Assembly (NCBI RefSeq): GCF_988243305.1
Contig: NZ_OZ547136.1
Length of the DNA: 64,000 nucleotides
Reading direction: 5' to 3' (one strand)
This document shows, piece by piece, positions 534 through 51,493 of the stretch. Position 1 is the stretch's first letter. The number at the start of each line of letters is the position of its first letter. The translations under genes were made by a program, and so were the position numbers. The notes under the pieces are model-generated. The model searched no databases. It was given only the letters and a program-made list of their open reading frames with translations, and was not told the origin of the DNA.

Positions 534-647
534 ATGTTGTCCAAACAAATCCCGCTTGGCATCTATGAAAAAGCGCTCCCCGCCGGGGATGAGCTTAAGA
601 TAGCTATAACATTGAATAATAAAAATATATTTAAATATATCGTATAA
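534..647 (+). pseudogene. ulaE: ulaE 5' fragment (L-ribulose-5-phosphate 3-epimerase), first 18 codons then island-derived read-through
   Basis: MLSKQIPLGIYEKALPAG matches the UlaE N-terminus; frame then enters AT-rich island sequence and stops. Confidence 0.8.
576..589. repeat. 14-bp direct repeat CTCCCCGCCGGGGA, left island junction (att core)
   Basis: Identical 14-mer at 50681..50694; deleting 590..50694 restores a continuous ulaE reading frame (…[13 protein letters not shown]…). Confidence 0.75.
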
Positions 648-669
648 ATAGCCCCCAATATAGCCCCCA
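647..669. repeat. Tandem ATAGCCCCCAA x2 (candidate integrase arm-type sites, left end)
   Basis: Two copies 1 bp apart; same TAGCCCCCA motif occurs twice at 50522..50542 just upstream of the integrase start. Confidence 0.45.
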
Positions 670-795
670 AGGTGTAGTTGTTATACATGAAGGTATATTG
701 AACTCTGTTGAAATATTATCTGTAATGGTTCAGTGAATGCAGCATACCTACCTGTCTTGTTCCGGGACGAGACACAATATCTGTGATATATAAGT

Positions 796-1644
796 CTATA
801 CTGAAGAAGAGACTTTTCCCGCATAATGTTTCGCAATAATATCATTTAGCCGATCAACCAGTTCTGGTTTCCTGAACGTGATATGTGCGGAGCCCTTCTT
901 AAAGTATCTGATGCTGAACATCTCATCTTCATAGCACGCTTTGCCCTGAACGGAGCGGATGTGATCATCCAGACGAATAGTGATGTTTTCCCGGTTGTCG
1001 GGGATTGGTTTGCCGCTGAACAGGTGCAGCATTCTTTCCTGGTCGGCAAGTCTATCTGCCTGTTGCCCGGTGATAAGATGCAATCCCCATCGGTCCCATC
1101 TCACCAGATTGTTGACGATAATTTTATTGCCAAATTTACAGGGGGAGTTGGTTTTGTAATTCCAGCTCAGCCCTCTGAAGAGGTTGATCACACCTCGCTC
1201 AAACACTTCATCCTTATTCTGGTGCAGTTGTTCAAATGTGCTCAGGATATTCGCCTCGCTGATTTCCGGAAAATTATCGTACTCCAGTGACCGGTACCAT
1301 GTATCACGGGCCTGTGCATCCATTAATGACAGCATCCCTGAACGTTGCATCAGGTCACGCCAGATTTCGCGGTCAAGGTTGCGGGTGATAGCTTTCATTG
1401 CGGTTTCCGTTTTATCCATCAGCCAGCAGCCGCAGCGAAAATCCTGTTTCATGGCCCAGTCCCGGGCGGTTTTACCTCCAATACTTTCTGTCAGTACTGA
1501 GATTTCTGCCAGTTGCCGGATAAGTGTGTCGATTTGCAGCAGCGCACTCTTTCGCACAGCTAGAATGTGGCTGACTGAGGTGGAGCAGATAACGTCCGTA
1601 TGCCCGTTGACCACTTCCGGACGGGAGGCTGTGATTTCAGACAT
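796..1644 (-). CDS. Hypothetical protein (282 aa) at the distal end of the CP4-like backbone
   Basis: Long ORF, same strand as the backbone genes; family not recognised. Confidence 0.5.
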   Translation of the reverse strand: MSEITASRPEVVNGHTDVICSTSVSHILAVRKSALLQIDTLIRQLAEISVLTESIGGKTARDWAMKQDFRCGCWLMDKTETAMKAITRNLDREIWRDLMQRSGMLSLMDAQARDTWYRSLEYDNFPEISEANILSTFEQLHQNKDEVFERGVINLFRGLSWNYKTNSPCKFGNKIIVNNLVRWDRWGLHLITGQQADRLADQERMLHLFSGKPIPDNRENITIRLDDHIRSVQGKACYEDEMFSIRYFKKGSAHITFRKPELVDRLNDIIAKHYAGKVSSSV

Positions 1645-3597: not shown

Positions 3598-4089
3598 TTA
3601 AAGCAGACCGTGTTCCGCAAAGGAGAAAACCTGGCTGCCACCGATTATCAGATGGTCCGGTACCCGGATATCCACCAGGGCCAGTGCCTGTACCAGACGC
3701 TCAGTGATAAGGCGGTCTGCCTTGCTGGGGGTGACTTCACCGGACGGGTGATTGTGCGCCAGCACCACGGCAGCGGCATTGTGGTACAGGGCGCGTTTAA
3801 TCACCTCCCGGGGATGGACTTCTGTGCGGTTGATGGTGCCAGTGAAGAGGGTTTCACCGGCAATCAGCTGATTCTGGTTGTTCAGGTACAGCACCCGGAA
3901 CTCTTCACGCTCCAGCCCTGCCATGTTCAGAATCAGCCATTCCCGTGCCGCACGGGTGGAGGTGAAGGCCACGCCGGGTTCATGAAGATGGCGGTCCAGG
4001 GTTTTCAGGGCCCGTTGAATGAGGCTGCGCTCGCCGGGCGTCATCTCTCCGGGCAGAAAGGAAAGCTGTTGCATTGTACTTCTCTCCAT
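3598..4089 (-). CDS. RadC-like JAB/MPN-domain protein (YeeS/YkfG/YfjY family)
   Basis: HNHPSG JAMM motif; conserved CP4-type context. Confidence 0.85.
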   Translation of the reverse strand: MERSTMQQLSFLPGEMTPGERSLIQRALKTLDRHLHEPGVAFTSTRAAREWLILNMAGLEREEFRVLYLNNQNQLIAGETLFTGTINRTEVHPREVIKRALYHNAAAVVLAHNHPSGEVTPSKADRLITERLVQALALVDIRVPDHLIIGGSQVFSFAEHGLL

Positions 4090-4563
4090 TCAGTCGATGA
4101 TGCGCATAATGGCGCTGCATTCCGGATGCTGCAGGGCGTAATCCCGCAGCCGGTAATAATGGACCGTCATGGCATAACACTCCGTACGACAGGCATGATG
4201 ACTGTACGTCATCAGACAGGCAGCAATGCCGGCAGCTTCCGGACTCATTTCAGCGCGGTTACCGTTCATGGCATTGAACAGTACCCATGTTTCGTCATCA
4301 TCGTCATCCGGTTCGGGTGCCATAAATGCCCCGCCGTTGTTCAGGGTGTACAGATTCCAGATACCACCGCAGTAGTCTTCGCACAGACGGTCCATCCAGC
4401 CGAAGACACGGGGCTCCAGGGTCACCCACTGTGGAATGAGGCCAAAGTGCTGCGGCCAGAAGCTGATGCGCTGTTCATCAGGGACGAGGGTGGCAACCAG
4501 TTGTTGCAGGTCAGTCTCCGGTGCACAGGCTGAAGAGGTGGTGTTCTGAGACAATGTTTTCAT
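4090..4563 (-). CDS. Antirestriction protein, KlcA/ArdB family (YfjX-like)
   Basis: Acidic DDDDDE stretch and conserved context upstream of radC-like; start taken at MKTLSQ. Confidence 0.7.
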   Translation of the reverse strand: MKTLSQNTTSSACAPETDLQQLVATLVPDEQRISFWPQHFGLIPQWVTLEPRVFGWMDRLCEDYCGGIWNLYTLNNGGAFMAPEPDDDDDETWVLFNAMNGNRAEMSPEAAGIAACLMTYSHHACRTECYAMTVHYYRLRDYALQHPECSAIMRIID

Positions 4564-15798: not shown

Positions 15799-16005
15799 TT
15801 ACGGACGGGACTGTGCAATACGCGCCTGCAGCCAGGCTTCCACTTCACTTTTCAGCCATCGGGAACTGCGGCCCAGCTTGATGGGGGCCGGAAAGGCCCC
15901 ATCCCTGATGAGTTTGTAAAACCACTTATCGGTCAGGCCAGTCAGTTGAGTGATAAACGCCATGTCGACCATCTGGTCATCCATCAGTGAAACTGGGGTG
16001 GTCAT
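15799..16005 (-). CDS. alpA: AlpA-family transcriptional regulator / excisionase-like protein
   Basis: MTTPVSLMDDQMVDMAFITQLTGLTDKWFYKLIRDGAFPAPIKLGRSSRW… matches AlpA. Confidence 0.8.
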   Translation of the reverse strand: MTTPVSLMDDQMVDMAFITQLTGLTDKWFYKLIRDGAFPAPIKLGRSSRWLKSEVEAWLQARIAQSRP

Positions 16006-49321: not shown

Positions 49322-50503
49322 TCAGGTCTGCTCAGAAAGTGAATCAATGTAGTCAGCGTACCATTGCATCATTTCACGGCGACCATCGAGATACTGTGCG
49401 TGGTTATAGGTACCGCGCATGATGTTTTTATCAACATGGGCAAGCTGGAGTTCAATCCAGGCAGAGCTGAAATCATGGTCATGGAGAATGGTACTGAAAG
49501 TATGCCGAAAACCATGAGCTGTAGTGAATGTATGCCAGCCAACTTGTTGAAGAAACTCATTGATGCAACCACGGCTACGAGGTTGATTACCCCTGTATAC
49601 ACCAGGAATAACCAGATCTGAGTTACGGGGATTTGTGATTATTTTTATATCTTTCAATAACATTTGAGCCTGATGAGAAAGAGGAACAACATGCGGCCTC
49701 CGCATTTTCATTCTCTCTTTTGGGATTACCCAGAGGGCATTGGTAAAATCAATTTCATCCCAAGTAGCCAGGCGTAATTCTCCCGTTCGAACAGCAGTCA
49801 GAACCAGTATCCGCGTTACCAGAGACATAAAATTTCCTGAAACTTTCATTTGGTACATGAAAGCTCCTAACTGTTCTTCAGATAGCATCCGTCTCTGCTG
49901 TTTTTCAGGATGCAGAACAACACTGCTGAGAGTCGATGCTGGGTTAATAGTGGCGCGCCCCGTCGCAATGGCATAATCAAATATTTGAGAACAGAGCTGA
50001 CGAGTCTTACGTAACGCTTCAAGTTTGCCATTCCTTTCAATAACCCTCAGTGCATTCAATATTTCCAAGGGGCGAATATCAGCCACAGGACGCTTCCCTA
50101 GCGTGGGATTAATATGATTCTCGAATCTTGCACGCTGGTCCGCTAAATAACCCGCAGTCCAACGACAAGCCATATGTGTGAACAACTCTTCTGCAAGAGT
50201 ACAAAATGTGCATGCAATACTTTCTCTTAGTGCATGTTTACTCGCCTGTTTTTCATATGAAGGATCTTTTCCTTCAGCCAGGAGTTTACGTGCGTCATCC
50301 CGTTTCTGACGCGCCAGAGCCAGTGATATGCCTGGATAGACACCAATCACCAATTTCTTTTCTTTACCCGCAAATCGATACTTCAGATTCCAGTAACGAG
50401 CGCCAGATTTCTTGATAAGAAGGTAAAGTCCTTGACCATCAGAAAGTTTGTAATCCTTGTCAGCGGGTTTGGCCGACTCAATTTGTCGAACAGTAAGTGG
50501 CAT
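49322..50503 (-). CDS. int: Tyrosine integrase, P4-type
   Basis: 393 aa; N-terminal …KLSDGQGLYLLIKKSGARYWNLKYRFAGKEK… and C-terminal HGFRHTF…LAHVD…Y catalytic signature; 177 bp from the right junction. Confidence 0.9.
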   Translation of the reverse strand: MPLTVRQIESAKPADKDYKLSDGQGLYLLIKKSGARYWNLKYRFAGKEKKLVIGVYPGISLALARQKRDDARKLLAEGKDPSYEKQASKHALRESIACTFCTLAEELFTHMACRWTAGYLADQRARFENHINPTLGKRPVADIRPLEILNALRVIERNGKLEALRKTRQLCSQIFDYAIATGRATINPASTLSSVVLHPEKQQRRMLSEEQLGAFMYQMKVSGNFMSLVTRILVLTAVRTGELRLATWDEIDFTNALWVIPKERMKMRRPHVVPLSHQAQMLLKDIKIITNPRNSDLVIPGVYRGNQPRSRGCINEFLQQVGWHTFTTAHGFRHTFSTILHDHDFSSAWIELQLAHVDKNIMRGTYNHAQYLDGRREMMQWYADYIDSLSEQT

Positions 50504-50521
50504 GATGTTAACTCCGAAAAG

Positions 50522-50542
50522 TAGCCCCCAGAGTAGCCCCCA
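50522..50542. repeat. TAGCCCCCA x2 direct repeats just upstream of the integrase start (candidate arm sites or operator)
   Basis: Same motif and orientation as the pair at 647..669 at the other island end. Confidence 0.45.
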
Positions 50543-50680
50543 AAATCATCTTGATGCTCATGGAAGATGGTTTACATCCAGAGTAAAAGAATTTCTGATA
50601 ATACCTTATTTTAACGTGTGTTAAAGGGGATGAAGAGAGTTCTGTTGAAATCAGTCGAAATAAATAGGGCTTAATAAATC

Positions 50681-50694
50681 CTCCCCGCCGGGGA
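50681..50694. repeat. 14-bp direct repeat CTCCCCGCCGGGGA, right island junction (att core)
   Basis: Identical to 576..589. Confidence 0.75.
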
Positions 50695-51493
50695 GTGCTG
50701 GCTGGAACGCCTGCGACTGGCAAAAACGTTGGGCTTCGATTTTGTCGAGATGTCGGTAGATGAAACTGACGAGCGCCTGTCGCGCCTCGACTGGAGCCGC
50801 GAGCAGCGTCTGGCGCTGGTGAATGCGATTGTTGAAACCGGCGTGCGTGTGCCGTCCATGTGCCTTTCTGCCCATCGTCGTTTTCCGTTGGGCAGCGAAG
50901 ATGACGCGGTGCGGGCGCAGGGGCTGGAGATTATGCATAAAGCCATCCAGTTCGCCCAGGACGTTGGCATTCGCGTGATCCAGCTGGCGGGCTATGACGT
51001 TTACTATCAGGAAGTCAATAACGAAACGCGTCGTCGTTTCCGTGACGGCCTGAAAGAGAGCGTTGAGATGGCAAGCCGCGCGCAGGTGACGCTGGCGATG
51101 GAGATCATGGATTATCCGTTGATGAACTCCATCAGCAAGGCGCTGGGTTACGCGCACTATCTCAACAACCCGTGGTTCCAGCTCTACCCGGATATCGGCA
51201 ACCTGTCGGCGTGGGACAACGATGTGCAGATGGAGTTGCAGGCCGGAATCGGGCATATCGTCGCGGTACATGTGAAAGACACCAAACCTGGCGTCTTCAA
51301 AAACGTGCCGTTTGGCGAAGGTGTAGTGGATTTCGAACGTTGTTTCGAAACGCTCAAACAGAGTGGCTATTGCGGGCCGTACCTGATTGAGATGTGGAGC
51401 GAAACGGCGGAAGACCCGGCGGCAGAAGTGGCGAAAGCGCGTGATTGGGTGAAAGCGCGCATGGCGAAAGCGGGCATGGTGGAGGCGGCATAA
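50681..51493 (+). pseudogene. ulaE: ulaE 3' portion (L-ribulose-5-phosphate 3-epimerase lacking its first about 14 codons)
   Basis: Resumes …[24 protein letters not shown]…; in-frame stop immediately upstream in island sequence; first Met at 50729. Confidence 0.85.

Follow-up and report, generated by a model that had tools for sequence, protein, structure and literature searches.

At both ends of a large E. coli island, the same short word, TAGCCCCCA, occurs as a closely spaced tandem pair. A sequence-only reading of the locus had taken these pairs for binding sites, either of the arm type used by integrases or of a directionality factor. What are the pairs for, and which of the two proteins would read them? 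The DNA that we analyzed, a single stretch of 64 kb to which we refer as the window, contains the E. coli ula operon with ulaE interrupted by about 50 kb of foreign DNA.

A direct repeat of 14 bp, CTCCCCGCCGGGGA, marks the two borders of the island, at positions 576–589 and 50681–50694. The left copy (the crossover region of attL) lies inside ulaE codons 15–19, and the right copy (attR) is followed by the 3′ part of ulaE. When the flanks were joined across one core copy, the resulting 241-bp sequence proved contiguous in E. coli at 100% identity; it was present uninterrupted, in one place and with at least 80% query coverage, in 5351 of 5426 complete E. coli genomes. The intact ulaE site is a near-palindrome, GCGCTCCCCG-C-CGGGGAGTGC, and in the core, CTCCCCG-C-CGGGGAG, the central base is the sole asymmetry inside the 14-bp identity. 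The integrase clade to which the island belongs has the near-palindromic core CTCCCCG-N-CGGGGAG.

Located in ulaE coding sequence, the core does not correspond to a tRNA or tmRNA 3′ end, and no tRNA was found at the relatives from the same clade (L031–L036). Other family members (L037, L038) use tRNA-Phe or tRNA-Arg. A tRNA-3′-end core is a typical trait of the P4 family and not a defining one.

Insertion has cut ulaE after codon 19 and parted ulaABCD from ulaEF (window 535–650 and 50695–51493; compare L001 2950–3765). Two RefSeq gene models at the junctions look like by-products of this event. One is an UlaE with a shortened N-terminus, starting within the end of the island; the other, a short 'hypothetical protein', begins at the start of ulaE and reads through the left pair. 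The left end of the island carries a DUF4942/DUF957/DUF5983/CbtA module, typical of CP4-type islands. By its genes, the cargo (window 20000–48800) seems metabolic and not virulence-related: there are, among others, a DHDPS-family enzyme, an MFS transporter and a sigma-54 activator, as well as a dynamin-family GTPase, a HerA-like fragment and several IS-like ORFs.

Next to the right junction, and transcribed away from it, the minus strand encodes a tyrosine integrase of 393 amino acids (49322–50503). The sequence-only reading had assigned this protein to the P4 type, and the domain search bore this out, returning Arm-DNA-bind_3 (PF13356, E = 4e-26) followed by Phage_int_M and Phage_integrase (PF22022, PF00589). 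Its N-terminal domain is 53% identical to that of P4 Int, as against about 35% for the protein overall and for the rest of Int, and solved homologues of the arm-binding domain are available (3JU0, 3JTZ/3RMP). The ATG is at 50503, with the core 177 bp upstream of it and a ribosome-binding site, GGAG, 8 nt upstream (50512–50515, minus strand). As int adjoins the core and is transcribed away from it, its upstream region is at the same time one arm of attP. A second gene of interest, on the minus strand at 15799–16005, encodes a small HTH protein of the AlpA/Vis family (Pfam Phage_AlpA, E = 7.8e-9), 37% identical to P4 Vis over 59 residues; it is a candidate for the recombination directionality factor of the island.

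The four copies of TAGCCCCCA occupy positions 649–657, 661–669, 50522–50530 and 50534–50542, all on the plus strand, as the sequence-only reading had it in describing a single orientation. Both pairs have a period of 12 bp, and neither lies more than 160 bp from the island border established above. The int-distal pair, TAGCCCCCA-ata-TAGCCCCCA (649–669), had been placed about 60 bp inside the left junction and is in fact 59 bp from the core. The int-proximal pair, TAGCCCCCA-gag-TAGCCCCCA (50522–50542), had been located just upstream of the integrase start; on the sense strand of int it reads TGGGGGCTA-ctc-TGGGGGCTA and spans –39 to –19 from the ATG, separated by 138 bp from the right core and by 6 nt from the ribosome-binding site.

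Across the whole 64-kb window, on either strand, there are no exact copies of TAGCCCCCA beyond those four. This is 12-fold above expectation (4 vs 0.33 ± 0.64), and none of 100 dinucleotide-preserving shuffles reached four copies. The 21-bp pattern TAGCCCCCA-N3-TAGCCCCCA, allowing up to three mismatches, matched twice in the window (0.02 expected). Copies with one mismatch numbered 13 vs 12.4 expected, i.e., they were not enriched, so that the signal resides in the exact tandem pairs only.

A frequent motif would have spoken against a special role, and we scanned one genome from each of 100,044 species (298 Gb) for the exact pair. Only 24 matches were found, where by our own estimate, assuming uniform composition, some 9 would be expected by chance. 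No enterobacterial match was among these 24, because the representative genomes lack the island; relatives were hence drawn from a protein search and from the E. coli genome collection. With a 12-fold excess in the window, copies confined to two pairs and 24 pair matches in 298 Gb, we rejected the notion of a frequent or compositional word. A single TGGGGGCC occurs on the plus strand at window 15882–15890, inside the minus-strand AlpA-family gene, and is probably a coincidence.

Circularization of the island joins its two ends into one attP of about 250–300 bp. Read on the sense strand of int, this attP consists of the distal pair, 59 bp, the core CTCCCCGCCGGGGA, 138 bp, the proximal pair, 6 nt, the ribosome-binding site and int. 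A search of PLSDB for the joined attP as a circular or plasmid form gave no match, and in a terminator scan of both arms the palindromic core was the only terminator-like match.

This order is that of a known attachment site. The arm repeats of the P4 attP were reportedly first described by Pierson and Kahn in 1987, and P4 has the 3′ end of a tRNA-Leu gene as its core. In the P4 record (NC_001609.1), six 12-bp features are annotated as 'attP arm sequence repeat', in addition to the core (4078–4097). One tandem pair, at 3942–3965, lies 16–39 bp upstream of the annotated int start (3926) and is the counterpart of our proximal pair; another, at 4151–4174, is found on the opposite arm at a distance of 53 bp from the core, and corresponds to our distal pair (59 bp). 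Of the two remaining repeats, one is inverted and overlies the start of int, and the other is internal to the gene. Read along the sense strand of int, P4 has the words TTGGGGGCATAA/TTGGGGGCATCT and GTGGGGGCACAA/AAGGGGGCATAT.

Comparison with the att regions of P4-type integrases, which the sequence-only reading had recommended, thus reveals in P4 the same word (TGGGGGCAT in P4, TGGGGGCTA in the window, both of the TGGGGGC type), the same 12-bp tandem unit and the same two-plus-two layout in one orientation, served by an integrase of the same family and accompanied by a Vis/AlpA-type partner gene. The two systems differ in that the window has no inverted copy over the int start and no copy inside int, in the distance between proximal pair and core (112 bp in P4, 138 bp in the window) and in the core itself, which in the window is a near-palindrome in ulaE coding sequence. 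The pairs of the window are thus homologous to the arm repeats annotated in P4, in their layout, in their word and in their period of 12 bp.

CP4-57 of strain K-12 (intA/alpA, inserted at ssrA) offers a second point of reference. It shares with the window a P4-family integrase, a CP4-type end module with YeeU/CbtA-like genes and the two-plus-two layout, with a 12-bp period in both pairs. In CP4-57 the word TAGGCCCA is found twice upstream of intA, and the degenerate copies TAGGACCA/TGGGACCA lie 61 bp from the distal core. Unlike the window, CP4-57 has this other word, which aligns with ours about equally well in either direction, an inverted third copy, and a pair placed at –69 to –50 from the ATG; its Int is 34% identical to that of the window.

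We could follow the pairs in close relatives. The int–ulaE junction occurs at about 96% identity in 70 of 5426 E. coli genomes, while int with the proximal arm (at least 80% coverage) was found in 90 of the 5426, and the distal-arm block, queried as window 630–800 (the pair plus the stretch 672–745), likewise in exactly 90. For a detailed comparison we used the ulaE islands of the window, CP55_Sichuan and DETEC-P1056, with AR_0085 at the int-proximal end only, and the glnH/glnP islands of strains 400625, ECCNB12-2 and UTME-7. The distal pair was present in all six arms compared, 59–60 bp from the core and with a period of 12 bp, although the intervening 60 bp had strongly diverged; the 3-bp spacer was ata, att or atg, and one distal copy among the relatives carried a single change, TGGCCCCCA. 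At the other end, the proximal 9-mers were exact in the related islands, with gag, taa or aaa as the spacer. In related islands, where the sequence-only reading had proposed to look for enrichment, the outcome takes this form: pairs are kept while the surrounding DNA diverges, a pattern that fits protein-binding words and not neutral DNA.

The pair extends to more distant relatives. Seven non-viral relatives with an Int 54–77% identical to ours belong to Enterobacter, Serratia, Lelliottia, Salmonella and E. coli and are inserted at unrelated sites, tRNA-Phe and tRNA-Arg among them. Read on the sense strand of int, each of the seven has two GGGGGC(Y) words in tandem, with a period of 12 bp, immediately before the start codon. 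We also surveyed 58 viral P4-family loci from IMG/VR for which upstream DNA was available. An automatic 8-mer search tolerating up to one mismatch returned a tandem pair in 52 of the 58, always with a period of 12 bp; a strict GGGGG-type pattern was met in 41, and about 49 are of the GGGGG type if a single G-to-A change is allowed (counted by eye on the printed sequences). The other nine have TGTATA (seven loci), TTGGTATA and CGGGTA.

Most of the viral loci also carry a third, inverted copy that abuts the start codon, and this copy has the word of the locus's own pair (GGGGGTA/TACCCCC, GGGGGCA/TGCCCCC, TGTATA/TATACA). Words that change together within a locus suggest that one locus-specific protein reads all copies.

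A remote relative is a contig from a Flavipsychrobacter MAG (Bacteroidota; locus L024, 9866–9886 and 10098–10150), whose Int is 30% identical to ours and which shows the full P4 layout with TGGGGGCT words. This locus has a proximal pair and an inverted start-codon copy. A second exact TGGGGGCTA pair is found about 290 bp upstream of int, with a GC-rich hairpin between the pairs. Both pairs are contained within about 310 bp upstream of int; the locus may be an intact attP.

Which protein, then, would bind the pairs? The comparisons favor Int over the directionality factor, and we regard it as likely that the four TAGCCCCCA copies are arm-type binding sites for Int in a P4-family attachment site, a prediction made with good confidence. 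Of the two possibilities left side by side by the sequence-only reading (arm-type or directionality-factor sites), the first is supported by the P4 annotation, by the conservation of the pairs and by the way in which the word tracks the N-terminal domain of Int. The class of word was predicted by identity in the N-domain with an AUC of 0.87, and by identity in the rest of Int with an AUC of 0.71 (values obtained without correction for shared ancestry). Residues in the predicted strands of the N-domain also vary with the word: GLYL/YWxLKYR accompanies GGGGG, GLSL/SWRFRYR accompanies TGTATA, and GLTL/LWQFRYY is found in CP4-57.

The integrase would accordingly be named heterobivalent, with its catalytic and core-binding domains engaged at the near-palindromic core and its N-terminal Arm-DNA-bind_3 domain contacting the TGGGGGCTA words of the two arms. 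With its tandem sites spaced by 12 bp, each arm would accommodate two neighboring Int protomers, and arm–core bridging would become possible. Such bridging would build the intasome, in which the island could be integrated into ulaE or excised from it.

An alternative reading, which we deem unlikely, is that the pairs are sites for the AlpA/Vis-family protein encoded at 15799–16005, which would then serve to bend the arms for excision and to repress int. Directionality factors usually act on one arm only (as in lambda, L5, KplE1 and phage 186), whereas the word is found here on both arms, at the unequal core distances given above. The operators of such factors, on the other hand, typically consist of direct repeats with a spacing of about one helical turn (PMC7498355), and the island does encode a Vis homologue. 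P4 Vis binds the attP region in EMSA and DNase I footprinting, as summarized in PMC2603039, and lowers int expression (PMC2951348). Against these points stand the labels of the P4 record, which call the repeats attP arm repeats, the inverted third copy that most relatives add, and the word class, which tracks the Int N-domain. Identity to P4, higher for the Int N-domain (53%) than for the Vis homologue (37%), leans weakly toward Int and agrees with the near-identity of the arm words.

A further possibility is that the proximal pair acts at the RNA level, as a G-rich element in the 5′ UTR of int that controls translation or is bound by a Vis-like protein, the distal pair being a non-functional relic. 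The position of the proximal pair, 6 nt upstream of the ribosome-binding site, would suit such an element, and binding of P4 Vis to int mRNA has been proposed (PMC2951348). The distal pair, however, lies outside any int transcript, and yet its exact spacing is kept in six diverged islands, in P4 and in CP4-57; we therefore consider this reading very improbable. Finally, that the repeats are a chance or compositional coincidence without function, for which the background level of one-mismatch copies might be invoked, is refuted by the excess of exact copies and of the pair pattern over shuffled and expected values, by the conservation of the pairs across islands and throughout the integrase family, and by their match to the P4 annotation, and has a negligible probability.

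With Int as the predicted reader of the pairs, the differences from the P4 arrangement deserve attention. Every structural feature of a P4-type attP that we looked for is present, with the exception of the inverted copy and of the tRNA-3′-end core. An inverted third copy (GCCCCC on the sense strand) is absent from window 50504–50521, and the inverted start-codon copy is absent from the whole window clade (L031–L036). It is present at the int start in P4 (L044), in CP4-57 (L039), in the tRNA-Phe islands (L037) and in most viral P4-family loci. The distance from the pair to the ATG is also shorter in the window clade, about 14–25 nt vs about 30 nt elsewhere. Lack of the inverted copy is a variant within the family and does not exclude the window from it.

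The arms contain other conserved elements. Immediately islandward of the distal pair, alignments revealed a block at 672–745 (about 75 bp), GTTGTTATACATG.AGGTATATTGAACTCTGTTGA...TAATGGTTCAG, that is highly conserved across the ulaE and gln islands, unlike the 60-bp stretch between core and pair; this block is probably further attP arm sequence. A repeat search on the reconstructed attP identified a second word common to both arms, TCTGTTGAAAT, in direct orientation, with its left copy at 704–714 and its right copy at 50641–50651 (both on the plus strand). More distant relatives (66–76% identical) have an inverted repeat, GTCTGTTGA...TCAACAGAC, by the core, matching the place of TCTGTTGAAAT. 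This second word may represent another class of binding site, for the directionality factor or for a host factor. The arms contain no sequence that matches the IHF consensus, WATCARNNNNTTR, when up to one mismatch is allowed.

The sequence of the int-proximal arm also bears on the control of int. With the pair only 6 nt upstream of the ribosome-binding site, any int promoter must either overlap the pair or be located upstream of it. A scan of both arms called no consensus sigma-70 promoter ahead of int; by eye, only a weak TTAACA-15-TATTAT can be recognized at about 50625–50599 on the minus strand. A protein sitting on the proximal pair would obstruct transcription initiation or elongation into int, and Int bound there would lower int expression, since the pair lies between any int promoter and the ribosome-binding site. 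Negative autoregulation of this kind, which the sequence-only reading had considered for the right-hand pair, has precedents. P4 Int and KplE1 IntS repress their own promoters by binding to att arms, and in KplE1 both IntS and TorI repress PintS through attL sites (PMC2951348); IntI of PAI I536 likewise represses its own promoter (PMC7286903). By analogy, we judge repression of int by Int through the proximal pair to be slightly more probable than its absence. Elsewhere in the family, the inverted start-codon copy may be the main element of autoregulation.

The KplE1/HK620 IntS–TorI system resembles the window in having Int arm-type sites and directionality-factor sites upstream of int (PMC2951348), mapped by experiment there and predicted here. 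In KplE1, int has a promoter that overlaps the att arm and is repressed by its own product (PMC2951348). Phage integrases of the IntS type share about 40% identity with the window Int; KplE1 differs from the window in that its P′ sites have a conserved TAAA motif (PMC2951348) and its target is tRNA-Arg. The logic is also that of the lambda attP (P1, P2, P′1–P′3), where a heterobivalent Int bridges both arms and the core and tandem arm sites are spaced by about one helical turn (PMC4880445). Lambda differs from the window in the family of the N-domain and in the arm word, and its int is transcribed toward attP, without autoregulation through the arm sites.

The island family occurs in ulaE both ways round, 9 of about 70 genomes having it inverted with respect to the window. 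The central core base is C at both window junctions and G at both junctions of DETEC-P1056; three other inverted islands have G at the int-proximal junction, the only one checked in them (loci L004 3840–3860, L041 1140–1160, L125, L126 and L127). In the islands read at both junctions (the window and P1056), the repeats carry the base that fits attB in their own orientation. In the inverted island of DETEC-P1056 (L004 2488–4563), int follows ulaD on the same strand, so that read-through from the ula promoter could transcribe int, which is impossible in the orientation of the window.

A related integrase (80% nucleotide identity) has its islands in a hairpin between glnH and glnP, and these gln-site islands include a papGII/ireA pathogenicity island. 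The gln sites have the same half-sites as ulaE, with GGC or AGA as the central triplet (L003 3840–3860, L029 119–133, L030 7685–7700, and L042/L043 at about 1128–1141), and the middle of the core is therefore not fixed across the clade. The retrieved passages of Biggel et al. (2020, PMC7686366) describe the integration of papGII islands between ulaD/ulaE and between glnH/glnP, by site-specific integrases, and contain no mention of arm sites. In one of the gln islands that we examined, papGII and both motif pairs were present together. The island of the window differs from the papGII islands in its metabolic cargo, devoid of pap genes.

We tentatively entertain a broader proposal, which as a whole is rather doubtful: orientation would be set by one core base or not fixed, and, as a separate matter, an old recognition code would link the N-domain to the arm word. 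Should the first part hold, a tyrosine integrase found in nature would have its orientation decided by one base or left free; in the latter case, polarity would come solely from the asymmetric arm pairs, which lie 59 and 138 bp from the core.

On the whole, the repeats are a real but ordinary part of island integration and excision, and no new mechanism needs to be invoked. The arm repeats of P4 were already known, as were ula and gln as integration loci of papGII islands (PMC7686366). The TGGGGGC word and its 12-bp spacing, found from E. coli to the Bacteroidota (Int 30% identical), suggest that the recognition code is old and predictable, and with a code connecting N-domain and arm word, attP sites and the borders of islands could be located computationally.

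The repeats fix the functional ends of this island to the base, and for the P4 family they provide a border signature: a pair of TGGGGGC-type words spaced by 12 bp ahead of int, which recurs some 60 bp in from the opposite end. The 9-mers are also targets for tests of island stability, as their mutation should block excision or integration and raise int expression. P4-family islands, the papGII islands at ula and gln among them, carry many virulence and fitness genes of E. coli.
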